Shown here: positions 11,145-58,419 of the stretch, in pieces
How positions within the stretch are numbered: position 1 is the first letter of the stretch
How the letters are laid out: every line of letters starts with the position of its first letter
DNA from: Spirochaetales bacterium
GTDB lineage: Bacteria > Spirochaetota > Spirochaetia > DSM-27196 > SKKC01
NCBI GenBank assembly: GCA_007135605.1
Contig: SLIN01000075.1
Span: 1-60,909, forward strand
Direction: 5' to 3'
DNA length: 60,909 bases
Position numbers and translations under genes: made by a program
Notes under the pieces: model-generated
Seen by the model: the letters and a program-made list of their open reading frames with translations, nothing else
Told to the model about the DNA's origin: nothing
Database searches by the model: none

Positions 11145-14846
<3,702 letters not shown>

Positions 14847-27385: not shown

Positions 27386-27511
27386 GGTCGTCTCAGAGCT
27401 TGCCGCAACCGGACGTCTCGATTCAACCTGGGAGCGTGTCGGACGACCCGGCGGCCCGTTTACCCGTCCCCGTCACCCCGGGTATTCTAACTCCGACGAA
27501 GGAGGGTGCGA

Positions 27512-28009
27512 ATGGACCTATCGGATTTGGATCGTCTCGACCCTGAGAACAGTGCCGCGGATGCCGATCTTTCCGGCCTGTCGAAACAGGAAGCGTACGA
27601 GTATGTACGTTCCTTCGTTACGACGCTGAAATCGGTGCAGCGTAGACTCGAGGAAGCAGGGCGCACGCTTTCGCTCTGGCAGGAGCGCGCGCGACTCGCT
27701 TACGAGAAGCAGGACCGGGAGCTTGCCCGGGTTGCTCTGGAGAAGTGGGAAGCATCGAAAGCCGAGGTGGAACGACTGCAGGAGGAGGAGCGCAAGCTCG
27801 CCCGAACCGTCGATCTGTTGAAGCAGAACTTTGCCAAGCTCAAACGTACGCCGGAGATGTCCGTGGATGCCGAGGCATTGAACGAGCAGATGGAAGAGAT
27901 CGTCGGCTCGCATGAGTCGCGAAAGACCGAAAAGTCTCTGCGCGATATCGAAATCGATTCGCAGCTGGAGCAACTTCGCAAGAAGATTCGCAACGAGGAT
28001 AACGAGTAG
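27512..28009 (+). CDS. Hypothetical acidic coiled-coil protein (about 165 aa).
   Basis: Heptad-rich, charged sequence with no TM. GGAGGG SD at 27501..27506 supports ATG 27512 rather than the track's GTG at 27506. Its stop is 2 nt before ugpQ, so the two are co-transcribed. Confidence 0.5.
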   Translation: MDLSDLDRLDPENSAADADLSGLSKQEAYEYVRSFVTTLKSVQRRLEEAGRTLSLWQERARLAYEKQDRELARVALEKWEASKAEVERLQEEERKLARTVDLLKQNFAKLKRTPEMSVDAEALNEQMEEIVGSHESRKTEKSLRDIEIDSQLEQLRKKIRNEDNE

Positions 28010-28011
28010 GT

Positions 28012-28779
28012 ATGAACAATCCGCTTTTTCCCGATCTTCCCCGTCCGTGGGTATTCGCCCACCGGGGATTCAGTGCCCGAAGGCCGGAGAATACGCTATC
28101 GGCGTTCGAAGCCGCAAAGGACGGCGGCGCCGACGGTGTCGAGCTCGACATTCAACTGTGCAGCACCGGCGAATTAGTCGTTTTCCACGATTGGACCGTC
28201 GACCGGATGACAGGCGCAAGCGGTACCGTTTCAGAGATGTCGTGGCGCGAGCTGAGCAAGCTATCGGTCGTCGGCGAGGAACGTATACCGCTTCTCACCG
28301 ATGTCTTCGATCGCCTCGGTCGTGATCTATACTACGACATCGAGATAAAAACACGTGAGCGGGAACCGACAGGGATCGAGCAGGCGCTCGGCTCGATGAT
28401 TCAGTCGCGCGGACTGGCCGACAGGATCCTTGTCAGCTCGTTCAACCCGATGCCTCTTCGGGAGTTCCGTCGGATGCATCCGGAAATCCCGACCTCGGTT
28501 ATCTACTCCAGAAGCAGCGACGTCCCGTGGATTCTCCGTGGCGGATTCGGCCGCTACATCGCGGGCACCGATGCGATCAAGCCCGATCATAAGCTGGTAG
28601 GGGCGTTCAGTATGCTTCGAAATCGACTGACTCGGACGCCGGTAATCCCGTGGACCATCGACGACCCGGACGAGGCGAGACGTCTCATCGCTCTGCGCTG
28701 CGACGGGCTCATCACAAACGAGCCGGCGCTTATAGCCGAGGCGATCAGAGAGCCGAAACCGGCGCTCAGCGGAGTGTAG
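28012..28779 (+). CDS. ugpQ: Glycerophosphodiester phosphodiesterase (GlpQ/UgpQ family).
   Basis: GDPD motifs ..VFAHRGFSARRPENTLSAFEAAKDGGADGVELDIQL..VVFHDWTVDR.. Confidence 0.85.
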   Translation: MNNPLFPDLPRPWVFAHRGFSARRPENTLSAFEAAKDGGADGVELDIQLCSTGELVVFHDWTVDRMTGASGTVSEMSWRELSKLSVVGEERIPLLTDVFDRLGRDLYYDIEIKTREREPTGIEQALGSMIQSRGLADRILVSSFNPMPLREFRRMHPEIPTSVIYSRSSDVPWILRGGFGRYIAGTDAIKPDHKLVGAFSMLRNRLTRTPVIPWTIDDPDEARRLIALRCDGLITNEPALIAEAIREPKPALSGV

Positions 28780-28780
28780 G

Positions 28781-30229
28781 TCACTCGAGGCGACGCATAA
28801 GCTCATATCCCGCTATCTCACCGATTCGGCGAAATGCCGCGCTAATCGTGCTGACCGAATCACCGCCGCTGCTTCGGGTGAATCCCGACCAGCCGCCGAG
28901 CACGCGGTTGCTTCCCGTCTCGATAACGGAGAAGTCTCCGTCCACGCGGGCGAGCATACCGTTGCGCTCCTCGAACTCCGTGATCGCCGTACGACCGACG
29001 ATCACGAGCTCGACGCTCGGTGCGTTGCCGAGCACCAGATCCACGATCTCGCGATCACTCATATCGGCGGCGACACCGGGGCTCGATCCGGCATGGACGA
29101 GAACGTAACCGGCCCGCTCCAGGGTAGTGGTGAGCGAGGTCGCGGCACGACTCTCGCTCAGTGGATTTCCCGCCCGATCACGTTCCACGACAACTACTGC
29201 TATAGATCGATCGGAGACGTCGAGTGCGAAATCGTACGGAAATCGGACGCGCAAATCGCGGATGACCGTACGAAGTGCCGTGAGCTCACGCCCGCCGTCG
29301 GCGACAGGAATAGCATCGAGCTCCGAGCTCAGCGATACGCCCATCCGTACGTAGCCGGATCCCGGCGGGGTGTCGTCGGGAAGCGCGAACGTGACTCGGC
29401 CCGAGGCGTCGGTAGACGCCCTCGTCGTGCCGATCCCCGTCCGGCCGTGTGCCAATCTTACCGGGTGAGTGATCGACACCGGGACGCCGGACAACGGCGT
29501 CGTCCCCTCCGCAGTCTCGGCGTACACCTGTGCGGTCATCGGATCATCGGCGACCGGGCGCATCCGGACGCTCGAGAGAACATCCTCAGCCCGTCTCAGG
29601 CTGGAAGGCATCGTCGACTTCATCCCGTCGATTTCGCTTTCGGCGGCCGCAGCTGCAGCGCGCAGGTAATGCTGCGCGGCCTTCACATAGTCGCCTTCGG
29701 CTTCCAGCGCAAACGCGGTCCGCATCGGCGCTTCGACCGCCTCGATCCGCGCCTCGAATAGCGCGGTCAGCCGCGCCCGCTCCCGCTCGAGCGCATCGCG
29801 ATCGTATCGCGCGAGCAGATGAATCTCCACCCGGCCGTCACGGACCTCGACGAACCGGTCCTCGATCCGCAGCCCCTCGATACGAGCGGTGCCGTGCTGC
29901 TCTACCGTACGTGTCACCCGGCCCGTGAAATCTTCGAGCGACGCCTCGGCAACCGCGGTGCTCTCGGTACGTATTGTGACACCGAGATAACGCGTGATCT
30001 CGGAGACGAGCGCGGCTGTTGCCTCGTCCTCGGCCGCCGCCCTGCTGCCCCCGGCGTCCACACCGCGTCCGACGAAGTACTCCGCGTCGCTGGAGGTCGG
30101 AGGAGATCCGAGAACCCATTCCGGCTGTTCGGCCCTCTCTTCGGGCGACAAATCAGGGGAGGTGGCACACGCGGAAGCAACCAGGAGCGACAGAGTACAT
30201 AATCCCAACAGACGATTTCGGCCGAGCAT
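28781..30229 (-). CDS. Lipoprotein with an N-terminal LPP20/FlgP-like domain and a C-terminal CsgG/LpoB-like alpha/beta domain.
   Basis: Lipobox LLVASAC. LPP20 signature ..PEWVLG..YFVGRGVDAGGSRAAAEDEATAALVSEITRYLGVTIRT.. C-terminal ..IAVVVVERDRAGNPL..VDLVLGNA..ARVDGDFSVIETGSNRVLGGWSG.. resembles the CsgG-family fold. Confidence 0.55.
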   Translation of the reverse strand: MLGRNRLLGLCTLSLLVASACATSPDLSPEERAEQPEWVLGSPPTSSDAEYFVGRGVDAGGSRAAAEDEATAALVSEITRYLGVTIRTESTAVAEASLEDFTGRVTRTVEQHGTARIEGLRIEDRFVEVRDGRVEIHLLARYDRDALERERARLTALFEARIEAVEAPMRTAFALEAEGDYVKAAQHYLRAAAAAAESEIDGMKSTMPSSLRRAEDVLSSVRMRPVADDPMTAQVYAETAEGTTPLSGVPVSITHPVRLAHGRTGIGTTRASTDASGRVTFALPDDTPPGSGYVRMGVSLSSELDAIPVADGGRELTALRTVIRDLRVRFPYDFALDVSDRSIAVVVVERDRAGNPLSESRAATSLTTTLERAGYVLVHAGSSPGVAADMSDREIVDLVLGNAPSVELVIVGRTAITEFEERNGMLARVDGDFSVIETGSNRVLGGWSGFTRSSGGDSVSTISAAFRRIGEIAGYELMRRLE

Positions 30230-30250
30230 GAACGCGCTACCGGACCGACA

Positions 30251-30916
30251 TCAGAGCCCTTCCTCGGCAAGCGCCCGGCGCACACGCTCGCGCACGGTTC
30301 GCTCATCCTCGGTTCTCGGCTCCTGCGCTTGTCGCTCCGCGACCTCAATGGCGTGAAGCACCTGACGATCGAGCAGATCGCGATCAATGGTATAGAGAAC
30401 GGTATAACGATACTCATCGCGGTCGACCGTAGTGCGGTCGGCTTCATACCAGCGATACTGAACCCACCATTCGCCGGCACGTCGGAAGCCGCTGAACTCC
30501 GCCTCGGACATGGTCTTAACTACGTTTTCCATGTACGTTTCGATCGCATCGACTTCCCCCGCCGCGGCACCGGCGAAGCGCTGCTCCACACGGGTGCTAA
30601 CCTGCTGCGCGATCTGAGCCGGTGCGCTGAAGTTCTGCGCCCACATCTCCACCCCGCGCAGATCGCTGCCGGATTCCTCCAGAACGACAGCATACGTGCC
30701 TTCGAACTCATCCATCGCCTCAACGGCGGCCGCACCCTCGAGGCTTACCCGCACCCATTCCGGTGCGTCGACACCGCGCGAGCTTCCTCTGTGCTGCAAC
30801 ACGACGAACGGTTGCACCGCTTCATCGGCCGGATCGGGTGTGCTCGCGCACCCGACGATTACCAGCAGTACCGCGGAGGTCACAACGCATATTCGAAGCA
30901 GTCCACGCATAGCCAA
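30251..30916 (-). CDS. Small lipoprotein, LPP20/FlgP-like.
   Basis: Lipobox VIVGCAS, and ..PEWVRVSLEGAAAVEAMDEFEGTYAVVLE..APAQIAQQVSTRVE.. has the same pattern as LPP20 family members. Confidence 0.5.
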   Translation of the reverse strand: MAMRGLLRICVVTSAVLLVIVGCASTPDPADEAVQPFVVLQHRGSSRGVDAPEWVRVSLEGAAAVEAMDEFEGTYAVVLEESGSDLRGVEMWAQNFSAPAQIAQQVSTRVEQRFAGAAAGEVDAIETYMENVVKTMSEAEFSGFRRAGEWWVQYRWYEADRTTVDRDEYRYTVLYTIDRDLLDRQVLHAIEVAERQAQEPRTEDERTVRERVRRALAEEGL

Positions 30917-30939
30917 GGCTCCTCTGTAGCCGGTCCGAA

Positions 30940-32226
30940 TCAGAGACCGGAGTGAAAGGTGAGCGACTTACCGCGTCGGATCACCTGGTAGATGTTTTCC
31001 ATACCCGGCGTGGCATCGCCCGCCGCGTACACAATATCCTCGACTTCGTCGAGCGGTCCGTAGTGGCGGACCACGAAGTGCGTCGAATCGGGGCTCTGAC
31101 TCAACGTCTCGACCGATTCGGTACGTTCGCGCAGCATCTGGCGAAACCGGCCGACCATACGAGCATCGGGCGTGTTCTGCACAACGATTTCGTAGCGAAT
31201 TCCACGACTCAGATTCTGCTCCATGAGCACGCGACTCTGGTCAATCATTCGCGGCATGGCCGCGTAGACGGCGCTTTGTACTGCATTTGCACGAGCATCG
31301 AATTCATCGACTCTGCTCACCGCCCGCTCACTCCGGTACGGCACCGACCCGAGCAGTTGGCCCGTCGACGTTTCGAACATTCTCAATGTGATGTTCGCCT
31401 GTCCGTAGTGGGTATTTCGCTCGGTCGATCCACTGACGCTTGCGTCGAGCTCGACATAGACATCGGCATTGAGCCGCTGTGCGACCCATTGAAGGATGCT
31501 GACATCCCGACCGGTCTCTTCCTCGTACACCAGGCGCTGGTCCTCCTTGAGACGCTTCACCTGCCGTGCATCCACCGCGTAATAGCCGTTTGAGGTGAGA
31601 TAGCTGTTCGCCTGCCCGACACCGAGCTCCAGCAGGAACGGTTCGGTGCTCGCACGTTCGGCGTCGTGGTAGACCATATAGGTCATCGAGTCGATGTAGC
31701 GCCGGATGAACTCACGCTCGGAGGGACCTGCCGCGCCCCAGTCGGTCTCCGTGGTCGTTTCGGGCGAGCGATCCGCGTCGTCGGCCGGCCTTGCGGTCGC
31801 CCGGTCCACGGAGTCGTCGATACGGTTGGCCGACAGCGTTCGCCGGACCGCATCCACGTTCACCGCGATACGCAGCTCGTAGACATAGTCCGGGTCCTCG
31901 AATGTGCCGAGGTTCTCTCTGCGAAGCGTTTCCATCGTCTCGGTGTGGACGAACTGGTTCGGATTGCGCGTGCGATAGATGACATCCTCGAGGGTAGCGG
32001 CGTGGTAGCGTTCGGCCTCCTCCCCGATTTCGTCGGTTATGAAGGCACGAACCGCCTCCATCTTGGCCGCATTCATCGCCGTACCGAACGATTCCCCACG
32101 TCCGGACGCCTCGTACACCGCATCCGTTCGATCGATGGCCGGCTGGTCGGTTGCGCACGCGGACACGACAAGTGCGATCACTCCGAGCAGAAGCGATCTA
32201 CTGACAGCGCGGTGAAAGAACCTCAT
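30940..32226 (-). CDS. Lipoprotein with an LPP20-like N-region and a CsgG-like alpha/beta C-region.
   Basis: Lipobox VVSACAT. ..VYEASGRGESFGTAMNAAKMEAVRAFI.., and later ..ANITLRMFETSTGQLLGSVPY.. Confidence 0.5.
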   Translation of the reverse strand: MRFFHRAVSRSLLLGVIALVVSACATDQPAIDRTDAVYEASGRGESFGTAMNAAKMEAVRAFITDEIGEEAERYHAATLEDVIYRTRNPNQFVHTETMETLRRENLGTFEDPDYVYELRIAVNVDAVRRTLSANRIDDSVDRATARPADDADRSPETTTETDWGAAGPSEREFIRRYIDSMTYMVYHDAERASTEPFLLELGVGQANSYLTSNGYYAVDARQVKRLKEDQRLVYEEETGRDVSILQWVAQRLNADVYVELDASVSGSTERNTHYGQANITLRMFETSTGQLLGSVPYRSERAVSRVDEFDARANAVQSAVYAAMPRMIDQSRVLMEQNLSRGIRYEIVVQNTPDARMVGRFRQMLRERTESVETLSQSPDSTHFVVRHYGPLDEVEDIVYAAGDATPGMENIYQVIRRGKSLTFHSGL

Positions 32227-32235
32227 TCCGAGCTC

Positions 32236-33654
32236 CTATCGAAAGGTGATGGCGGCACCGATGTACGGGCCGACCAGCGGACGAATACCGCGATCAGCTG
32301 CAACGCCGCTGCGCCACAGCTGCATCCATCCCGTTTGTACACCGAGCATAGTATCTCTGCCGAGCTGGAAAATCATGCCCAGTTGCACTTTTCCGCCGAA
32401 GTGCGACACGAAGGGATCCGAGTCATCACCGAGCCGATCGGCGACCGCCCCACCGAATTTGAGTGACGGACCGATACGTAATCGACCGAAATAGAAGCTC
32501 GTCTCGAAGCCGAGATACCCGCCGATCACGGTGTGGTCGCCCTCGCCGGTCAGCGGCAACTCGAGCGCGACAAGCGGCCGGACGCGAAAGAACCCGCGAT
32601 TCGCAACGGCGCTCAGTCCGATGACCGCACCGGTCGGTTCGACCTGCCGGCCTCCTCCCGGTGCAGTGAGGAGCATGTGCGCATATGCCCCGACCTCCGC
32701 GCCGCGCCGCGGTACCTCCTCCAACTGATCGCCCACGTTCGCAGAGCGTCCCCCGTAGATAAGGCGAGCGACGCTATACTGCTCGTACACATCGCTGACG
32801 ACGATCAGCCCGCTCTCGTACTCGCCGGTATAACCGGCCCGACCGGTACGTGTGCTCATAATCGCGTACTCGTCCCCCGGTCGCACACCCATGTTCCGTC
32901 CGAACTCCATATAGATACGCCGCCCGTCACGATCGATAATGCCGCTGCGGATCCGGAAGGTCGCAAGCGAGCGAAGCTCGTACTCGAGCCTGGACGGGAT
33001 AGCGTCGACGGCGGCCTGTACCGCCCGCTCGGCGCGGTCGCTGTTCCCCCCGGTTTCGATCCGAAAGTGCTCGACACTCCGGCCGGAATCGACATCGACG
33101 ACGGTGAAGCTCGTTTCGATGCTTGCGCTGTACCGGATATCGTACGGGTCGTAATCCATTCGATACCAGGTGACCGACGGGACGATAACGAGGAATCCTC
33201 CGCTCAGCGCACGAAACTCGGCCTCGGTAAACGCCTGCTGCCCGAGCATGACCGCCTCCGGCATCTCGAGCTCCTCGGTTCGATATTCGCGAACCGCCTG
33301 GATGAACTCGTCCACGTATTCGGACCGCAGTCGCTGTGGATAGCCGACGACATCGAAGCGGCCGAGATTCACGAACACACCGCGAATTCGCTCGTCCACA
33401 GCGCCGAAGGCGTTCTGAAAGAGCGAATCGTAGCTCGGACGGCCGGTTCCACGGTACTCGAAGGCGAATCGTGAACGGTCGACCTCAATTCGCAGGAACG
33501 GACCGCTCGGCCGAACCGGTTCTGGCTGTCCGTAGTAGCTCAGGCGGAAGAGCGCGAGCTCGCGGCGGTCGGAGAACTCCTGGCCGCTCGCCGCGCCGGC
33601 GGCAAACAATACGAGCAGAACCGAGCTGAGGCCGATCGGAAACCAGCGCCGCAT
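32236..33654 (-). CDS. Secreted, beta-rich protein (signal peptide). Possible outer-membrane component of the lipoprotein operon.
   Basis: Start taken at MRRWFPIGLSSVLLVLFAAGAASG (33654), which removes the apparent overlap with the upstream gene. The C-terminal third has Gly/aromatic-rich alternating beta-strands. Confidence 0.45.
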   Translation of the reverse strand: MRRWFPIGLSSVLLVLFAAGAASGQEFSDRRELALFRLSYYGQPEPVRPSGPFLRIEVDRSRFAFEYRGTGRPSYDSLFQNAFGAVDERIRGVFVNLGRFDVVGYPQRLRSEYVDEFIQAVREYRTEELEMPEAVMLGQQAFTEAEFRALSGGFLVIVPSVTWYRMDYDPYDIRYSASIETSFTVVDVDSGRSVEHFRIETGGNSDRAERAVQAAVDAIPSRLEYELRSLATFRIRSGIIDRDGRRIYMEFGRNMGVRPGDEYAIMSTRTGRAGYTGEYESGLIVVSDVYEQYSVARLIYGGRSANVGDQLEEVPRRGAEVGAYAHMLLTAPGGGRQVEPTGAVIGLSAVANRGFFRVRPLVALELPLTGEGDHTVIGGYLGFETSFYFGRLRIGPSLKFGGAVADRLGDDSDPFVSHFGGKVQLGMIFQLGRDTMLGVQTGWMQLWRSGVAADRGIRPLVGPYIGAAITFR

Positions 33655-33682
33655 GTCCCGGAAACCCCTGGCCGTTCGCACG

Positions 33683-35710
33683 CTACTGTGAACCGGAGAA
33701 ATCGAGCCGTTCGGCGAGTCCGGCACGATCCCGATGCGCGAGCACACTGAGCACCCGCAGCGGAACCTCGCGCCCCTCGTCGTGCCGTGCGGTCATCGTG
33801 ACACCGTCGAATCTCGCCCCCTCGAGCGGTATCTCATCTTCCGTTCCCGCGCCGCCACGGACGATCAGCCGATCGTCGTCGTGCCGGATGCGCAAGAGGA
33901 GCGTGGAAGCGCCGTCGGAGGCGAACGACTCGTACGTCGCCTCGCCTATAACCGCCGAGCCGTCGCTTATTACAGTGAAAAGACGGCCTCTGTCATCCTC
34001 CGGGTACGATTCATCGAACACGAACTCGCCGGAGGCTTCGGCGGCGTCATCGCCGAGCTCGAGCTCAACGATGAGATCCTCATCTTCGAAAAGAAACGCG
34101 GGGAAGTGTACGCGCGCGCCGGGTTCCAGAACGAGCTCCCCGGTCCGAACGGTAACGCGACCGACTGTCTCCAGCTCTTCGGGCAGGAAAAGTCCCTCGA
34201 AACCCTGGGCATACGCCAGTCGCGAGGCAAACTGGCTCTCCATCGCATTTCGGAACAGACCGTCATCGGTCGAGAGACGCTCTTGGCTGTCGCGGAAATA
34301 CACTCCGACTTCGCCGACGAGGCCTACAAATCCGTTCGTTTGCGCGCCGACGACCGTTACCCCGTCGAGGATCGAAACGTCGTCGGGATCGGTAACTACA
34401 CGTGTTCGTGCGCTACCGGTCGGAGACTCGCCGAGCGGGGAAGAAGCGAAGCCGATGTCGAGCTGGTCGATGCTCGCAAGCTGTCCATCCACGAACCAGA
34501 GCACGGTCGTGTATTCCACGCCGGGCGAAACGGAAACACTGATCCGACTCGGTTCGTCCGGGACGAGCATCGGATAGGCACTCGAGGTCGTCGCTACTTC
34601 GCCATTTCGATGCAACGTCGCTCTCGGAATCCCGTTATTGTCGGTCTCTACACGGAACTCGAAGCTTCCGTCGGCGGCAGCCGTCTTATAGAGGGTTCGA
34701 TCGACTTGAAGGCCACTCGGCAAGAGGTCGAGGCTTAATGAGAACGGGGCCAGACTGCTGTCGACAAACGGCACTCCGAGACCGTCGGACTCGAATCCAC
34801 TCTTTCCGTCGAGCTGATAGCCGAGCATTTCTCCTTCGACCCTGAACACCGGCTCTCCAAAGAGTCGCCCGTCGAAATCGCGTGAGTCGAAATCGATACG
34901 CACTCCGTCGTCACGGAAATCGCCCTCGAGCCGGTACAGTGAATAGAACGACTCACGGGCCCGAGAGTCGCTCGCGCCTGCACTGGTATCGGAGCGACTG
35001 ACGTACACGTCCGCATTCTCGGCGAGCGCGCTCGGAAAATCATACCGGTCGCCGCTCGGTGGCGGAATCGGAAAGAGCTCAACCTTGACGCGATATACCC
35101 CCTCGCGTTCCGGTGCCTGCCAGTTCAGCTCTTCGAGTCCGTCGCCGATCGGACCGGTAGCGACGACTTCACCGTCGACACTCCACTGTAGCCATGCCTC
35201 TTCCCCGCCTCGAGCCGAGGTTTGGAACACCCCGACGGCTCCGGGATTCAGTCGGGCGGGATACGTACGTACGCCGTCGAGGTCGAACTCCCGTCCGACG
35301 ATAAAGGCTCTACGCTCTTCCCGCAGAAGCTCTCTTCCGCCGCTTTCCACCGAGATGTCGAGGGTGTACAGTCCCGGATCGAAGTCATCGGCCGGTATAC
35401 GAACACGCTGTTCGGCACCAAAATCATCGCGGGACCAATCGAAAAACTCGACCTCGCTCCCGTCGGCGGTCCTGACACTCACCGTTACCCGGTCGAAATC
35501 CGATCCGTCACCCAGCTCGATTTCGAGGGGCACCGTATCGCCTGTCGTGACGAAGTCACCATCTCCGACAGTATTCAGATGAACGCCGTCGGCCCGTGCG
35601 GCGTCGGGCAGAAAGAAGGCGCTATCGCTGCAGGAGGCCACCAATCCGAGCGTGGCAACGGCGGCGCAAGAGAGAAAGATCCGCTGTATCGAACGACGAC
35701 CCGATCTCAC
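33683..35710 (-). CDS. Large lipoprotein with several Ig-like/beta-sandwich repeats. First gene of the five-gene lipoprotein operon.
   Basis: Lipobox LGLVASCS. Repeated about 90-aa modules (..LYTLDISVESGG.., ..VYRVKVELFP.., ..SFEFRVETDNNG..). Confidence 0.5.
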   Translation of the reverse strand: MRSGRRSIQRIFLSCAAVATLGLVASCSDSAFFLPDAARADGVHLNTVGDGDFVTTGDTVPLEIELGDGSDFDRVTVSVRTADGSEVEFFDWSRDDFGAEQRVRIPADDFDPGLYTLDISVESGGRELLREERRAFIVGREFDLDGVRTYPARLNPGAVGVFQTSARGGEEAWLQWSVDGEVVATGPIGDGLEELNWQAPEREGVYRVKVELFPIPPPSGDRYDFPSALAENADVYVSRSDTSAGASDSRARESFYSLYRLEGDFRDDGVRIDFDSRDFDGRLFGEPVFRVEGEMLGYQLDGKSGFESDGLGVPFVDSSLAPFSLSLDLLPSGLQVDRTLYKTAAADGSFEFRVETDNNGIPRATLHRNGEVATTSSAYPMLVPDEPSRISVSVSPGVEYTTVLWFVDGQLASIDQLDIGFASSPLGESPTGSARTRVVTDPDDVSILDGVTVVGAQTNGFVGLVGEVGVYFRDSQERLSTDDGLFRNAMESQFASRLAYAQGFEGLFLPEELETVGRVTVRTGELVLEPGARVHFPAFLFEDEDLIVELELGDDAAEASGEFVFDESYPEDDRGRLFTVISDGSAVIGEATYESFASDGASTLLLRIRHDDDRLIVRGGAGTEDEIPLEGARFDGVTMTARHDEGREVPLRVLSVLAHRDRAGLAERLDFSGSQ

Positions 35711-35890
35711 AACAATAAGGATATCACGAATCGCCGGCGAAATACGACCTGATTGCCCCGGAATACCTATAGAAAGATCAACGAAAAGACCGCCCAGGCG
35801 ATAAACGCCCCTGCGAGCACCGCCGCGAGTATCGGAAGAACGAGTCGTAATCCGACCAATATGAGCAGCAGCGTGTCCGATCGTGTCGAT

Positions 35891-47572: not shown

Positions 47573-48994
47573 ATGAGTGAGAAGACTCCGAAGGAGATTC
47601 TGAGCTTAATGGAAAAGGAGAAGGTCCAGGTCGTCGACCTTCGCTTCATGGACTTCCCGGGTATCTGGCAGCACTTCAGCATTCCGGCGCACGAGCTCGA
47701 CGAGGATACGTTCCGTGACGGAATGGGATTCGACGGATCGAGCATTCGCGGCTGGCAGGCAATCAACGAAAGCGACATGATCGTCAAGCCGGTTCCCGAC
47801 AGTGCGTTCATCGACCCGTACATGACCGCCCGCACGCTCGTTATGACATGCGATATCTGCGATCCGGTCACCGGCGAAGACTATACGCGCGACCCGCGCA
47901 GCGTCGCCCGCAAGGCGGAGACCTATCTGAAATCGACCGGAATCGGCGATACCGCCTTCTTCGGCCCGGAGGCGGAGTTCTTCGTCTTCGACGATATCCG
48001 TTACGACCAGAACGAGCACTGCGGCTACTACTTCGTCGATTCGGTCGAAGGGCGGTGGAACTCCGGACGGGTCGAGGAGCCGAACCTCGGAAACAAGCTT
48101 CGATACAAGGAAGGCTACTTTCCGTGTCCTCCGGCCGACAGCCTGCAGAACCTTCGCAGCGAGATGATGCTCACCCTCGAGTCGCTCGGCGTGGCGGTCG
48201 AGGCGCAACACCACGAAGTGGCTACCGGCGGCCAGTGCGAGATCGACATGCGCTTTGCCCCGCTCGTACAGATGGCGGACAACCTGTTGAAGTACAAGTA
48301 CGTCATCAAGAACACCGCCCGCGCACACAACAAGGTGGTCACATTCATGCCGAAGCCGCTGTGGAACGACAACGGAAGCGGCATGCACATTCACATGTCG
48401 TTCTGGAAGGATGGAAAGAACCAGTTCTATGGTGATGGGTACGCGGGCCTTTCGCAGACCGCCCTCTACGCAATCGGCGGTCTGCTCAAGCACGCACCGA
48501 GCGTACTCGCGTTCAGCAACCCGACCACCAACAGCTACAAGCGGCTCGTACCCGGCTTCGAGGCTCCCGTGAATCTCGCCTACTCCAGCCGAAACCGCTC
48601 GGCGGCGGTGCGCATTCCGATGTACAGCCAGAGCGAGAAAGCAAAGCGCTTCGAGTTCCGCTGCCCCGATCCGAGCGGCAACGCGTACCTCACCTTCAGT
48701 GCAATGCTCATGGCCGCGGTCGACGGAATCCAGAACAAGATCGATCCCGGTGAGCCCCTCGACAAGAACATCTACGATCTGCCGCCGGCAGAAGCGGCGC
48801 AGGTACCGAAAACGCCGGGCAGCCTCCGCGAGGCGCTCGAGCACCTCGCCGTCGACCACGAGTTCTTGCTGAAAGGAGATGTTTTCACCAAGGATGTGGT
48901 GGAGACGTGGATCGAGTACAAGCACGACAACGAGGTCATGGAGGTGGATACGCGGCCGCATCCGTACGAGTTCGCGCTTTACCAGGACATATAG
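47573..48994 (+). CDS. glnA: Glutamine synthetase type I.
   Basis: Full-length GSI conservation, including the adenylylation-site region (..NLYDLP..). GGAGGA SD lies 8 nt upstream of ATG 47573. Confidence 0.95.
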
Positions 48995-49122
48995 ACGGCA
49001 CTCCGTCGTACCATACAATCGCCGCCGCGCCGGTTTTCCGGCGAGGCGGCGATGAGTAGTGCCGGTACCACTTTCGATTCCGGCGAGCATGTCGAGACAT
49101 CTCCAGCCGCCGTGCGCCAACC

Positions 49123-53683: not shown

Positions 53684-53812
53684 ACGCGGAAACCCTCCTC
53701 GTACTTCACAGTGTAGTAACTCGCAATGCACTTTTCAAACGGCCGGCGCAATTGACCTCGCCGAACCGGTTTGCCGGATCGTTCCGGTCGCCGGGCGCCG
53801 CCTGTGCATCAC

Positions 53813-54976
53813 TTATACGAATCCGCGCGTGCGGTACCACGCGAGCGTTTCGGGCACCCCCTCGGCGATCCCGACCCGTGGTCTATACCCGAGCTCCGTG
53901 ACCGCCAGATCGCTCGAACAGGCGGCACACGCGTCGAGCATCTCGGCTGCCTTCTCGCGGTGGAACGGGGGGAAGATGCCCAACGCGGACGCAATATCTT
54001 CGACAATCGCCCCGGCGGCGCGGAACGCCCGCCGAGGCACCGGCAGCGTCAGGACCGGTCGCCGCAACTGCGCGGCAACCGCGGAACGAACCTCGCGCGC
54101 GAAGTCGAGCCACCCGACTGTCTCCGGCGGACCGAGGAAGTATGTTCTGCCACCGGCATCGGGATGCTCGGCGGCGAGCATAGTGCCGGCGACGACATCA
54201 CGCACGTGGACGAGGCTCAGCCGGCGACGCCGGTCGATCGGCACCGGGCATACCCCCCGAGAGGCTGCCCGGAAATAGGTGTAGATGTCGCGCTCGCGCG
54301 GACCGTAGACCGCCGGGGGTCGAACGACGGTAATCGGCAGGCGCCCGTGCAGCGATTGCGGGTCGGACGGAGTCCCGAGCGCCCGCTCGAGCTCGGCTTT
54401 GCTGCGCCCGTAGGCGCTTACCGGCTGCATTGCAGCGCGCTCGTCGGCAACGCCCTCCACGGCGCTCCCCACGACCGCGAGGCTGCCGGCCACCACAGCA
54501 CGTTCGAGGCGGGTCGAGGCCCGGGCGGCGCATTCGAGCAGGCCGACGGGGGCGAGCACATTTGCAGTAACGAACTCACTCCAGCTCTTCGCCCGCGTGA
54601 GCGCTGCGAAGTGGAAGATGTGTGTGACGTCGGCGAGTGCGCGTTGAAGGTCATCGAGATGGGGTGGCGCGCCGGCCGTCGAACGGCGAGTCGCGGCGCC
54701 ATCGGCGGATCGGCTGTCGATCGCACCTACGCTTCCGTCGTTGGGAGCCGCGGTACCCGCCGCCCTTGCCTCCCCGCCCGCGAACACCGGAGCCCGGGCG
54801 AACCGCGCGAAATCGTCGAGGGTACCGGTCACCCGAACCACCGGCTTGCCCCGCAGCCACTTCGGGTCGCGACGGACGAGACATCGAACCTCATCCCACC
54901 CGTCGGCGAGCAACCGATCGACGATGTGGCTTCCGATAAAGCCGGTACCACCGGTAACAAACGCGACTCTCGGCAC
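53813..54976 (-). CDS. NAD-dependent epimerase/dehydratase family (SDR) protein with a low-complexity insertion.
   Basis: Rossmann motif VAFVTGGTGFIGSHIVDRLL. Exact enzyme not assignable. Confidence 0.75.
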   Translation of the reverse strand: MPRVAFVTGGTGFIGSHIVDRLLADGWDEVRCLVRRDPKWLRGKPVVRVTGTLDDFARFARAPVFAGGEARAAGTAAPNDGSVGAIDSRSADGAATRRSTAGAPPHLDDLQRALADVTHIFHFAALTRAKSWSEFVTANVLAPVGLLECAARASTRLERAVVAGSLAVVGSAVEGVADERAAMQPVSAYGRSKAELERALGTPSDPQSLHGRLPITVVRPPAVYGPRERDIYTYFRAASRGVCPVPIDRRRRLSLVHVRDVVAGTMLAAEHPDAGGRTYFLGPPETVGWLDFAREVRSAVAAQLRRPVLTLPVPRRAFRAAGAIVEDIASALGIFPPFHREKAAEMLDACAACSSDLAVTELGYRPRVGIAEGVPETLAWYRTRGFV

Positions 54977-55008
54977 GCAGTCAGCCCCTCAACTCGTAAC
55001 CCATGCGG

Positions 55009-55809
55009 TCAGCCCTTCAACTCGTAAACGACAAGCGCACTGTCGACTGCAAAACCGAGCCGTTCGTACAGCCGCTGCGCCTCCAGCTCCGCCTGAAGGA
55101 GCGCCCGTGTGCAGCCGCGTTCGGCGGCACGAGCCATGAGATGGACCATCACCGCACCGGCATATCCTCTCCCGCGGGATGCATGGCGCGTCGCCAGCTG
55201 ATAGATCCCGGCGTACCGCTTACCGTCATCGAGTTCCGGTTCGAGGCGGAGCTTCGCGCACGTCACCGCCCGTTCACTCCGGTATCCGAGATACCACTCG
55301 CTGTCGGCACGCCGGCGCCACGCGTCGGGCAATGTCTCGAGGAATCCGGAAGTCGTGGTACGGTCATAGTCGTTCGCCTCGGTATAGATGCGCACCCACT
55401 CTTCCGCCTCCGCCGTCGAGCGCACCGGTCGCACGTCGAGCTCCTCCCGTGCAGCCGCACGAACTACACCGTCCCACATTGCCGGGCGACCTGCCCCGTG
55501 CAGCGATCCGCTCATGGCCGGGAAGTCCCCGCGATGCGCCAGCCCCGCTGCCTCCAGCGCCGCACGGAGAGTGTCACGGCGAGGCGGCTCCCACAGAAGC
55601 CAGCGGATCTCGGCGGGATTCCGCGCACCGCGGATATCGTCGAGCACCACCTCCACCGACGACCGATCCTCCCGGGCGGCCGGATCGCCGGTCGGATAAA
55701 CGCGAACCGGTAGATCGGGGTGAACCTGTACCCAGGTCCACGGCCGGACGGTGCGCACGACACCCAATGGGGCATGGCACTGCTCGAGAAAATGGTGATG
55801 TAAACTCAT
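55009..55809 (-). CDS. GNAT-family N-acetyltransferase (C-terminal GNAT fold).
   Basis: ..RGRGYAGAVMVHLMARAAERGCTRALLQAELEAQRLYERLGF.. Start taken at MSLHHHF (55809). Confidence 0.65.
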   Translation of the reverse strand: MSLHHHFLEQCHAPLGVVRTVRPWTWVQVHPDLPVRVYPTGDPAAREDRSSVEVVLDDIRGARNPAEIRWLLWEPPRRDTLRAALEAAGLAHRGDFPAMSGSLHGAGRPAMWDGVVRAAAREELDVRPVRSTAEAEEWVRIYTEANDYDRTTTSGFLETLPDAWRRRADSEWYLGYRSERAVTCAKLRLEPELDDGKRYAGIYQLATRHASRGRGYAGAVMVHLMARAAERGCTRALLQAELEAQRLYERLGFAVDSALVVYELKG

Positions 55810-56698: not shown

Positions 56699-57199
56699 AT
56701 GGGTGAATCCATCGATGTGGTGAAACTCGACGTTCATGGGGTCGAGAAAATCCGCTATACAGCCACACCACTCATGCTCGATTTCCGGTGGGGTTACGCG
56801 CTCGTAGAGGCTCACTTCGCCCTCGACCGCGCCGATGTCGAGCTTTTCGCCCTCGAGCACGGCGACCGCATGATCGAGCACTTCTGGAGCTCGCGGCACT
56901 TCAATGTTTTCGAGATCTACGCTCCGGACGGATCGCTTCGCGGTTTCTACTGCAACATCACCCGCCCGGCAACAATCGACTCGGTGAGTATAGCCGCCGA
57001 CGATCTGGCCCTCGATCTCGTCGTGGATACAGCCGGCAACACGGTGCGGCTCGACGTCGGCGAGTTCCGGTCACTATCTATCGGTGATGATGAGCGCCGC
57101 CGCGCGATCGCCGCAATCGAGGAGCTCGAGCTCATGGCGCGCCTCAGAATCGGGCCGTTCTTTCGACTCAAACGCGCGTATCGGGAGGCGAAGAGGTGA
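56699..57199 (+). CDS. DUF402 (FomD-like nucleoside di/triphosphatase) family protein.
   Basis: ..RGFYCNITRP.. and overall DUF402 pattern. GAGGTG SD, ATG 56699. ATGA/GTGA-type overlap with the next gene. Confidence 0.6.
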   Translation: MGESIDVVKLDVHGVEKIRYTATPLMLDFRWGYALVEAHFALDRADVELFALEHGDRMIEHFWSSRHFNVFEIYAPDGSLRGFYCNITRPATIDSVSIAADDLALDLVVDTAGNTVRLDVGEFRSLSIGDDERRRAIAAIEELELMARLRIGPFFRLKRAYREAKR

Positions 57200-58419
57200 C
57201 CGCGAATCGACCGGGCGGCCGCGCGTACCCGTCCGCAGCATACCGTTGTGCGCCTCGGACGGCGCCCGCCGTGCTTCTGCTCCTGCTGCTCGCGGCCACG
57301 GCAACCGCCCGCGAACCGCTTCCGAGCGATACCCGCGACGGACTGATCCTGATACCGGACGCAGGCGCGGTTTTCGAGCCGAGCGCACTCGAGGCCACAC
57401 CGCCGGAAGCACTCGACTACGTCCGCTACGACGGCTTTCCCGCGTTGCTGCCGGACGAGCCCCACGCAGGCCAGGAGGTCGCCGACGATCCGAGGGCAAC
57501 CGACGAGGCGCTCGACGCGGCTGGATTCGGCGAATACCTTCTCCTCTACGCCTCCGATCACGGCGATTCGGAGCCTGCGTACGAGCCGGATCTCGTACGA
57601 CTCGGACTCATCACGCGGAACGAAGAGATCCCGTTCGCGCTCATAGAAAGCGATTCCGATCGCTACGACGCTACCCTCTGGAGCGCATCTCTCTCCTACG
57701 GCAATCTCTTTGTGCGAATCGACGACTCACGATTTGTCGTAGACCTCGGTGCGCTCTACGAGCTGAACCTCCGGCTCGAAGGCGACGAGCAGCCGTACGC
57801 GAGCCGACTGCCGGCGCTCCCGGCGGCGCCGGTCGCCGCGCGATTCACGTGGGTTAAGCAGCTCTCCGAGCATCTGATCGAGATCGAGGCACGACTCATC
57901 ATCTCCCTGAATAATCCGAATATGGAGCCGGTTACCGCGCGCGTGTTTCTGCGTCCCGGCTCGGACTCACTCGAACTCGTGGCCTATCTGATTGAGGAGC
58001 TCGCGTATCCGGACGGGCTGGAGTATCGCGCATGGCACACCTTCGAGGGACGCAGCCCGGCAAGGATCCGCGAAGAGGTTCTGCGCAGTACGCCGGCGGG
58101 CGGAGACCGCAGGCACTTCCGGATTGCTGTCGGCGAATACGCGCTGCATCGGGGCCGCTTCGTGAGATCGAGCGCGACGCGAACGATTTGGGAGGATGTT
58201 TTCCCGACGCGGCTGGTGGTTGCCGAGGAGCAGGTCGGCGTGTACGACATGCCGGGCGGCGCCCGGGTCGGTGAGTTACCGCTCGGCCGTCGAGTGCAGG
58301 CGGTTGAGCCATGGGGGCGCATCGACTCGCGTGACGGAACGGACGGTGTGTGGTACCGGGTTCGATTCGGAGGCGGAGCCGGCTGGGTCTGGGGCCCGTA
58401 TCTGGCCGAACCGGAGTGA
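57196..58419 (+). CDS. Secreted hypothetical protein with a C-terminal SH3b-like domain.
   Basis: GTG start with GGGAGG SD. Hydrophobic signal AVLLLLLLAATATA. C-terminal ..VGVYDMPGGARVGELPLGRRVQAVEPWGRIDSRDGTDGVWYRVRF.. Confidence 0.5.
   Translation: MTANRPGGRAYPSAAYRCAPRTAPAVLLLLLLAATATAREPLPSDTRDGLILIPDAGAVFEPSALEATPPEALDYVRYDGFPALLPDEPHAGQEVADDPRATDEALDAAGFGEYLLLYASDHGDSEPAYEPDLVRLGLITRNEEIPFALIESDSDRYDATLWSASLSYGNLFVRIDDSRFVVDLGALYELNLRLEGDEQPYASRLPALPAAPVAARFTWVKQLSEHLIEIEARLIISLNNPNMEPVTARVFLRPGSDSLELVAYLIEELAYPDGLEYRAWHTFEGRSPARIREEVLRSTPAGGDRRHFRIAVGEYALHRGRFVRSSATRTIWEDVFPTRLVVAEEQVGVYDMPGGARVGELPLGRRVQAVEPWGRIDSRDGTDGVWYRVRFGGGAGWVWGPYLAEPE

Follow-up and report, generated by a model that had tools for sequence, protein, structure and literature searches.

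A conserved five-gene cluster of free-living spirochaetes encodes exported envelope proteins, two of which are akin in fold to Vibrio H-ring proteins

Background

In published structures, FlgT, FlgP and FlgO form lipid-anchored rings by which a machine is secured to the outer membrane. In Vibrio, FlgT and the lipoproteins FlgP and FlgO make up the H-ring (PDB 3W1E, 8Z5N, 9YDS), which is built upon the L ring, the P ring and MotX/Y. FlgP, Lpp20 and the N-terminal domain of FlgT share the SHS2/LPP20 fold, made up by a strand, a helix and two strands (PMC12222027). Further terms of comparison are Campylobacter FlgP/FlgQ and the LPP20 family (PF02169, IPR024952), including H. pylori Lpp20 (5OK8). 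Other systems feature an alpha/beta domain, as CsgG (4UV2, 4UV3), the hairpins of which build a 36-stranded pore, and PelC, the dodecameric ring of the Pel exporter (5T0Z, 5T10, 9H80). LptE, LpoB, TolB-N and PqiC are periplasmic lipoproteins of the same alpha/beta fold with quite different jobs. Small 8-stranded barrels are found in the N-domain of OmpA, OprF-N, NspA, OmpW and PagL; single-domain barrels of this size are the only ones reported in T. pallidum.

Results

Organization and conservation of the cluster

Five adjacent genes, G1 to G5, reside on the minus strand of a metagenomic Spirochaetales bacterium contig, analyzed over a stretch of 60,909 nucleotides (the window). Orthologs of all five were found in dozens of species genomes, and the genes are therefore real. 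G1 (33683..35710) encodes a lipoprotein of 675 aa. The G2 ORF covers 32236..33747, and the gene is likely 32236..33654, starting at the ATG at 33654 and encoding 472 aa, as called in the source contig. G3 (30940..32226), G4 (30251..30916) and G5 (28781..30229) encode lipoproteins of 428, 221 and 482 aa, respectively, the first apparently belonging to the DUF6175 family. Measured with the G2 start at ATG 33654, the gaps G1-G2, G2-G3, G3-G4 and G4-G5 are 28, 9, 23 and 21 nt long. As had been predicted, the genes lie behind a region of lower GC content (0.528 vs. 0.622 across the cluster), the 180-nt intergenic stretch 5' of G1 (35711..35890, minus strand). It features a terminator-like hairpin directly after oppF (35802..35789), likely the oppF terminator, and is presumed to hold the operon promoter; no sigma-70-like promoter was found on its minus strand by a consensus scan. 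Since upstream neighbours vary among species, transcription of the cluster probably starts from a promoter of its own.

The expectation that the cluster would be conserved in relatives was borne out. G2-G3-G4-G5 are colinear in 55 of the 59 loci of related species in which there is room, the median gaps being 11-52 nt, and both order and short gaps persist down to 40-45% identity. In one rearranged locus (L002) the genes are still linked, G4 is absent from 3 of the 59 loci, and the G2-G3 pair alone is retained in Treponema MAGs. In 42 of 60 loci G1 lies upstream of the other genes and shares their strand; elsewhere it is sometimes inverted or absent. Such tight linkage proves a common function for the cluster genes, not a common structure. 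The genes flanking the cluster are housekeeping genes which differ between lineages. In the window the cluster adjoins an opp peptide transporter, a neighbourhood not conserved elsewhere. Statements on gene context rest on seven neighbourhoods with Pfam annotation; nothing in them links the operon to flagella or to secretion.

All five products are exported. Lipobox cysteines were read from sequence and family alignments in G1, G3, G4 and G5, and G2 has a Sec-type signal peptide lacking cysteine (..AAGAAS/GQEF); the earlier description of four lipoproteins and a fifth protein with a signal peptide and a beta-rich C-terminus thus holds. The cysteine is invariant among orthologs of G4 (IVG/C23) and G5 (ASA/C21), as among 40 orthologs of G1 (LVAS/C27), and C24 of G3 is kept in at least 90% of the G3 orthologs.

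G2 and G3

According to its AF2 model (pLDDT 81), G2 is a Sec-exported outer-membrane protein of three domains. Residues 31-230 (32965..33564, minus strand) form a FlgT-M/CsgG/HpaA-type alpha/beta domain, residues 236-314 (32713..32949, minus strand) a small FlgT_C-like beta domain, and residues 319-471 (32242..32700, minus strand) a predicted outer-membrane beta-barrel. The C-terminal 150 residues fold in the model as eight beta-strands, antiparallel and transmembrane, which close the barrel. The likeness to FlgT_C is seen at the sequence level, the Pfam family being matched by 31 of 46 G2 relatives; homologues of G2 make up 512 clusters at 50% identity. The barrel resembles those of the OmpA N-domain, OprF-N, NspA, OmpW and PagL, but the domain order of OmpA is reversed, the periplasmic part of G2 being N-terminal, and the peptidoglycan-binding OmpA_C domain is missing.

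The model of G3 (AF2, pLDDT 88.6) finds FlgT as its best Foldseek match (8z5n, E 2e-8; 3w1e, E 3.4e-8), and as modelled G3 is FlgT-like in its domains 1 and 2. The N-terminal domain (residues 37-133; 31828..32118, minus strand) is arranged, according to DSSP of the model, as beta-alpha-(helical insert)-beta-beta-alpha, and comparison with the published description (PMC12222027) suggests an SHS2/LPP20-like topology. The insert consists of three short helices (residues 69-92), at the position where FlgP carries its ring-forming beta-hairpin. No profile match was found between this domain and either G4 or the N-domain of G5. The central domain (residues 168-340; 31207..31725, minus strand) is of the PelC/CsgG/LptE/LpoB/TolB-N alpha/beta type, and the C-terminal one (residues 343-425; 30952..31200, minus strand) has a predicted beta-alpha-beta-beta-alpha-beta-beta arrangement. 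PF19672 (DUF6175) was matched by 33 of 48 G3 orthologs (best E 7e-8); the G3 protein of the window scores 20.0 bits over profile positions 19-149 of 293, the cutoff being 23. Orthologs in Spirochaeta lutea, S. africana and S. dissipatitropha carry the NCBI label 'DUF6175 family protein'. No paper mentioning DUF6175 was found, in keeping with the view that the operon had not been described.

The N-M-C architecture of FlgT is not present in one periplasmic protein, being split between G3 (N-like and M-like) and G2 (M-like and C-like). Unlike FlgT, G3 is a lipoprotein with an alpha/beta third domain in place of the FlgT-C barrel, and in G2 the FlgT-like domains are joined to a transmembrane barrel.

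The alpha/beta domains of G2 and G3 match FlgT, CsgG, PelC, LpoB, LptE, HpaA and TraT structurally, and a periplasmic domain of the CsgG type is thus present. CsgG/LpoB-like regions had been placed at the C-terminus of two proteins; the fold is there, but the domain is central in G3 and N-terminal in G2. Pfam CsgG (PF03783), suggested as a search profile, matched neither the window proteins nor their isolated domains, and does not figure in the Pfam families listed for orthologs. Judged by helix/strand maps of the models, that is by secondary structure only, the G2 and G3 domains have no CsgG-like transmembrane beta-hairpins.

G4, G5 and G1

G4 is a single-domain protein of about 220 aa. The layout of G5, as read from profiles, comprises a putative LPP20-like domain, a helical segment, a beta-sandwich and an alpha/beta domain. 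The first (residues 33-150; 29780..30133, minus strand) features a PEWV motif, followed by a predicted strand, helix and two strands. The middle part (57 orthologs) matches DUF4198, Big_1 and CarboxypepD_reg in Pfam. Homologs of G5 number 8 by word-indexed search vs. about 70 in genome loci.

Profile comparison shows homology between G4 and the N-domain of G5 (hhalign over the full length, Prob 97%, E 1e-10; signal peptides removed, Prob 91%, E 1e-6). This is the sole homology detectable among the five, which are not the five-member paralogous cluster of the original prediction.

The link to LPP20 is weak. G4 and G5 share with Campylobacter FlgP/FlgQ and the LPP20 family a P-x-W-V motif after the lipobox and, apparently, the strand-helix-strand-strand domain following it; the LPP20-like start predicted for at least three proteins finds some support in G5, 13 of 57 orthologs of which match PF02169 at E<=0.01 (best 1e-5). 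The window proteins, however, stay below the Pfam threshold, no match being found even at E<=10 for G3, G4 or G5, searched both entire and domain by domain, and a Pfam scan of 61 G4 orthologs found no match, LPP20 included. The match of G5 to the PDB structure of Lpp20 (5ok8, E 0.002) was obtained with the signal peptide in the query, and is lost with a trimmed N-domain profile lacking it.

The C-domain of G5 (residues 330-482; 28784..29242, minus strand) is on profile comparisons probably of the CsgG/PelC/FlgT-M alpha/beta type. Its profile matches PelC in the PDB (9h80_C, E 0.049 over 121/154 positions), and hhalign of the whole domain gives Prob 45%, E 2e-4 with the G2 N-domain, Prob 10% with the central domain of G3.

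G1 is a lipoprotein apparently rich in beta-sandwiches and the most variable of the five, with a mean column identity of 22% over 40 orthologs. The multi-Ig-like nature ascribed to it rests on beta-sandwich matches, Ig-like or ConA-like, all below threshold (BiPBP_C, Big_3_5, Laminin_G_3, CopC).

Discussion

The reading we tentatively prefer, holding it to be somewhat short of probable, is that the cluster encodes an outer-membrane-anchored periplasmic complex of free-living spirochaetes, a structural scaffold and not a channel. It is supported by the conserved order of G2-G5 and the survival of G2-G3 alone in Treponema MAGs, by the conservation of the lipobox cysteines, by the match of G2 and G3 to folds of ring-forming proteins, and by the FlgT_C and LPP20 matches among relatives of G2 and G5, respectively. 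The kinship of G4 to the G5 N-domain, the weak similarity of the G2 N-domain to the G5 C-domain, and housekeeping neighbours varying between lineages point the same way. Against it stand the weakness of the LPP20 link, a linkage which is no proof of shared structure, and the alpha/beta fold, which is so generic among lipoproteins (LptE, LpoB, TolB-N, PqiC) that fold alone does not fix function.

The fold kinship of G2 and G3 with Vibrio H-ring proteins is real, and this part of the proposal of a flagellar outer-disk module stands. The five proteins might be a flagellar accessory, either an analogue of the H-ring or basal disk, or another outer-membrane-side structure touching periplasmic flagella or motors. 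The H-ring is made of exactly such parts: FlgT is the best PDB match of G3, G2 has FlgT-M-like and FlgT_C-like domains, G4 and G5 would be LPP20/FlgP-type lipoproteins, and each set has lipid-anchored as well as periplasmic subunits beneath the outer membrane. Identity to the Vibrio proteins, however, is 13-16% only, and in its SHS2-like domain G3 has a helical insert where FlgP has a hairpin. Flagellar genes adjoin the cluster in none of the seven annotated neighbourhoods, nor were they found among the other window genes scanned; flgH, flgI and motX/Y, for the partners of the H-ring, are beside it in no annotated locus. Spirochaetes are flagellated, but their flagella remain in the periplasm, generally without an L-ring. 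Moreover, as Treponema MAGs hold the reduced pair only and the barrels of T. pallidum are single-domain, the set appears not to be a core component of the motor. A flagellar role is thus unlikely.

It is also improbable that the genes encode surface or periplasmic lipoproteins which are co-regulated yet physically independent, serving for example nutrient binding or adhesion, and share no assembly. The families are mostly unrelated in sequence, G1 comes and goes, and the opp transporter beside the window cluster would suit this view. That neighbourhood, however, is not conserved, one fold repertoire recurs within the set, and order and short gaps of G2-G3-G4-G5 held down to such low identity are typical of the subunits of one machine.

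Doubtful, too, are regulators similar to LpoB, TolB-N or LptE, outer-membrane lipoproteins which extend inward and control peptidoglycan synthases or the traffic of lipids and lipoproteins rather than forming a static scaffold. The matches to such proteins are at the fold level only (9-17% identity), the BiPBP_C match of G1 is generic Ig-like and sub-threshold, and genes for PBP, Tol, Lpt or Mla/Pqi are linked to the cluster in none of the seven annotated neighbourhoods.

A CsgG- or PelC-like secretion apparatus, a lipoprotein funnel or channel exporting a polymer or a protein across the outer membrane, is very improbable: G2 and G3 have CsgG and PelC among their best structural hits, the G5 C-domain weakly matches PelC and G2 is an apparent outer-membrane barrel, but likeness to PelC is confined to the fold, the long hairpins of CsgG are missing from the models, the sole membrane barrel is a separate, 8-stranded one, a PelB-like large barrel and a TPR protein are lacking, and csgA/E/F, pel and other substrate or synthase genes are near the cluster in none of the seven annotated neighbourhoods. 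To our knowledge, 8-stranded barrels such as OmpA, OmpW and NspA are too narrow to pass a polymer.

In the scaffold complex, the four lipoproteins, anchored via their conserved cysteines, would be sorted to the inner leaflet of the outer membrane. The lipidated, FlgT-like G3 would pair with G2, to which it is linked, in a conserved core, which the LPP20-type G4 and G5 and the variable beta-sandwich protein G1 may decorate. As FlgT, FlgP, FlgO, CsgG, PelC and TraT form rings under the outer membrane, the complex is likely oligomeric, and by analogy with these proteins possibly ring- or patch-like. By the same analogy, it would contribute to envelope architecture, stiffening or organizing outer membrane and periplasm. 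The operon is conserved in many free-living spirochaetes and has never been studied; as far as the models and profiles indicate, it uses the same structural modules as the outer rings of flagella and the outer-membrane lipoprotein rings of other bacteria.

Gene layout and export signals

The cluster lies on a metagenome contig and is made up of five consecutive ORFs on the minus strand, G1 (33683..35710, 675 aa), G2, G3 (30940..32226, 428 aa), G4 (30251..30916, 221 aa) and G5 (28781..30229, 482 aa). The longest ORF available to G2 spans 32236..33747, on the same strand as the others; the gene call on the source contig and the orthologs indicate the ATG at 33654 as the likely start, and a product of 472 aa. 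Using this corrected start, the intergenic gaps measure 28, 9, 23 and 21 nt. G1, G3, G4 and G5 each have a signal peptide with a terminal lipobox cysteine, which in ortholog alignments is invariant in G1 (C27, 40 orthologs), G4 (C23) and G5 (C21), and is kept in at least 90% of orthologs in G3 (C24). The G2 signal peptide is cysteine-free. The tight array of five genes for exported proteins, four with lipoboxes and one with a signal peptide, was correctly anticipated in the original prediction. The source-contig call (locus L001, 6586..8544) starts G1 at an internal GTG, yielding 652 aa and losing the signal peptide; the lipobox is restored by taking the GTG at 35710 as start (window 35642..35710).

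The 180-nt spacer toward the upstream oppF gene has a GC content of 0.53 (vs. 0.62 within the cluster), and a terminator-like hairpin is found inside it, directly past oppF. A simple sigma-70 scan of the oppF-G1 spacer gave no promoter match. The promoter of the operon would lie in this spacer (35711..35890), because of its position and because the upstream neighbours vary among species.

At the other end, a PspA/IM30-like coiled-coil gene (27506..28009) and a glycerophosphodiester phosphodiesterase (GDPD) gene (28012..28779), both on the plus strand, converge on G5, the stop codons of G5 and GDPD being 1 nt apart. The same PspA-like/GDPD arrangement is found beside G5 at one other locus (L005), GDPD and an unannotated gene at another (L006). 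No paralogs of G1-G5 were found in the window outside the cluster, and an RNA-family scan of the window returned one tRNA-Arg and no other family. Three candidate ORFs of the window have no Pfam match at E<=1e-5: 47606..49120 (minus strand, 504 aa), 53771..55027 (plus, 418 aa) and 57196..58419 (plus, 407 aa). A GH2 beta-galactosidase gene (11145..14792, minus strand) resides in the GC peak of the window (0.69 at 12001..14000 vs. about 0.62 overall).

Conservation and gene order

Relatives of G3 were sought by an alignment scan covering one genome per species, which detected them in at least 146 species genomes. The 80 loci listed all come from MAGs of Spirochaetales, Spirochaetaceae or Salinispira, many of them recovered from soda-lake sediments, and the closest G3 relative among them is 93% identical. 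G3 orthologs are present in named cultured species, among them Spirochaeta lutea, S. africana and S. dissipatitropha; Salinispira pacifica is a named carrier of a G2 ortholog. The G2 family is represented in an exhaustive HMMER search by 512 representative clusters at E<=1e-3, 167 of them at E<=1e-30. In two cluster look-ups of remote G2 relatives, Treponema sp. was the sole taxon named.

To establish gene order, the five proteins were compared with every ORF at each locus. G2, G3, G4 and G5 are colinear and on one strand in 55 of the 59 loci with enough room, with median gaps of 11-52 nt, and the cluster is strongly conserved. Of 60 loci, 42 have G1 upstream of this block in the same orientation, 8 have it inverted or at another position, and in 10 it escaped detection. 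The operon is flanked by housekeeping genes that differ by lineage (opp transporter, GDPD, PspA-like, mnmE, mnmG, rsmG, alanine racemase, TRAP transporter), and no flagellar, curli or Pel gene was found in the annotated neighbourhoods.

Further variation was observed at single loci. G4 is missing from three (L073, L079 and L086), in which G5 directly follows G3, so that G4 either can be dispensed with in certain lineages or has diverged past detection. In a more distant MAG (GCA_964468155.1, locus L002, 8272..12809) a short G3-like gene (340 aa) is followed by G4 and G5, a G2-like gene is inverted downstream and no G1 was detected, the remaining genes staying linked despite the rearrangement. 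Treponema sp. MAGs (L088, 6930..9705; L089, 2873..5648) feature only adjacent G2-like and G3-like genes, followed by a DctPQM TRAP transporter. As this pair is retained alone, G2-G3 can be regarded as the conserved core of an operon whose linkage is tight and ancient. At two distant G2-family loci (L090, 1..10569; L091, 1..10458) the G2 relative resides at the end of another conserved block, made up of four CotH-kinase-like genes, a DAGK_cat gene and a HypF_C_2-domain gene, with no adjoining G3.

Family matches and relationships among the five proteins

Pfam and NCBIfam scans of the five window proteins gave no family above threshold. Sub-threshold signals were limited to FlgT_C for G2 (23 bits vs. 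27), DUF6175 for G3 (20 vs. 23) and BiPBP_C for G1, and isolated domains scanned at E<=10 returned nothing relevant. Scans of the ortholog sets made the signals consistent: FlgT_C is matched by 31 of 46 G2 relatives, DUF6175 by 33 of 48 G3 relatives and LPP20 by 13 of 57 G5 relatives, beta-sandwich families matching the middle of G5. G1 relatives show weak Ig-like or ConA-like matches only, G4 relatives no Pfam match. At the sequence level DUF6175 is the only family label that appears to fit the operon; no paper on it was found in the searched literature, and nothing relevant on LPP20 in spirochetes.

G4 is homologous to the N-domain of G5 in profile-profile comparison (probability 97% at full length; 91%, E 1e-6, minus signal peptides). 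The G5 C-domain can be aligned from end to end with the alpha/beta domain of G2 (probability 45%, E 2e-4); its match to the G3 central domain is weaker (probability 10%). The remaining cross-family matches in all-against-all blastp and hhalign comparisons are due to signal peptides, and the notion of a five-member paralogous cluster had to be abandoned. Sequence-profile searches of the PDB were negative for both G2 and G3. The G5 C-domain profile matched PelC over the whole domain (E 0.049), and a CsgG/PelC-type fold is probable for this domain on profile evidence. The top matches of the same profile, designed WD40-type repeat proteins, are spurious; only PelC covers the whole domain.

The LPP20-like reading of the original prediction stands in part. 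The domains of the window proteins, scanned in isolation at E<=10, gave zero PF02169 matches. The full G5 profile hits H. pylori Lpp20 in the PDB (5OK8, E 0.002); the match is gone after trimming of the signal peptide, and was rejected as solid evidence. What remains in support is the minority of matching orthologs, the P-x-W-V motif that precedes a strand-helix-strand-strand pattern and is conserved in the alignments, and the SHS2-like topology of the modelled G3 N-domain, an SHS2-like fold being common to FlgP, Lpp20 and FlgT according to the Campylobacter motor paper (PMC12222027). LPP20-like is a reasonable description of these proteins; that they are members of LPP20 is not established.

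Predicted structures of G2 and G3

The AlphaFold2 model of G3 (48 sequences, pLDDT 88.6) features three domains and a disordered acidic linker. Residues 37-133 are predicted to form a strand, a helix, a helical insert, two strands and a helix. An alpha/beta sandwich is modelled at residues 168-340, and a small alpha/beta domain at residues 343-425. Ring formation accompanies an inserted beta-hairpin that separates the helix from the second strand (PMC12222027); the G3 insert found at the position of the FlgP hairpin is helical in the model. The G2 model (46 sequences, pLDDT 81.2) is also made up of three domains, one of which shows, as modelled, an outer-membrane barrel fold. Both G2 and G3 have periplasmic domains of the FlgT/CsgG/PelC type. 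G2 probably does not correspond to any of the 8-stranded T. pallidum barrels, which are described as single-domain proteins.

Discussion

The products of G1-G5 may form one complex at the periplasmic face of the outer membrane, with four lipid anchors and one barrel to keep it in place. Such a complex would probably be oligomeric, because rings at this site are frequent among solved proteins with these folds: known rings are 26-mers for FlgT, 58-mers for FlgP and FlgO, nonamers for CsgG, dodecamers for PelC and decamers for TraT. A structural scaffold of the envelope is the favoured role for the operon, with a little less than an even chance of being right. Regulatory roles like those of LpoB or LptE, together with independent lipoproteins, share what the scaffold, flagellar and channel readings leave.

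The Vibrio H-ring (FlgT, FlgP, FlgO) is the known system most similar in composition, and a flagellar outer disk, as suggested earlier, would account for a parts list mirroring that ring. Such a disk would find neither an L nor a P ring to rest on, the annotated neighbourhoods of the operon are not flagellar, and the Treponema MAGs have only the reduced pair; a flagellar role is improbable. A secretion channel is most improbable, as helix and strand maps of the models show no CsgG-type hairpin insert, the barrel is only 8-stranded, and the annotated neighbourhoods contain no substrate genes.

In fold, the closest proteins are FlgT, CsgG, PelC, HpaA and small OmpA-type barrels. CsgG is defined by its HMM, transmembrane hairpins and csg neighbours, none of which was found; FlgT combines N, M and C domains in one periplasmic protein and occurs in a flagellar context, unlike anything in the operon. 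The operon is therefore outside both families. It is best described as a variant among outer-membrane lipoprotein assemblies that combine FlgT/CsgG-fold and SHS2/LPP20-fold modules, and as a member of none of those families.

Spirochaete flagella never cross the outer membrane. The parts list of the H-ring is found here in a new arrangement, two FlgT-like proteins, one fused to a barrel, and two LPP20-type lipoproteins, in a non-flagellar gene context. A more specific proposal, doubtful as it is, sees an outer-membrane ring or lattice of free-living spirochaetes, non-flagellar or independent of L and P rings, in which FlgT-like (G2, G3) and FlgP/LPP20-like (G4, G5) proteins would be fastened to the membrane through lipid anchors and the fused 8-stranded barrel. 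Cryo-ET of spirochaetes displays periplasmic densities lacking an assignment, as cones, bowls or layers, one of which such a ring or lattice might match.

Should no ring or lattice exist, this would still be an envelope operon that is widely conserved (G3 relatives in no fewer than 146 species genomes, 512 representative clusters in the G2 family) and entirely uncharacterised, open to study in the cultured Spirochaeta africana, S. lutea and Salinispira pacifica. The outer rings of Vibrio and Campylobacter flagella are textbook molecular add-ons, the evolutionary source of which is unclear. If real, the ring or lattice would be an undescribed envelope structure of spirochaetes, would give the first functional handle on DUF6175, might be ancestral to the H-ring or a cousin of it, and could exemplify the type of module recruited for the Vibrio H-ring and the Campylobacter basal disk.
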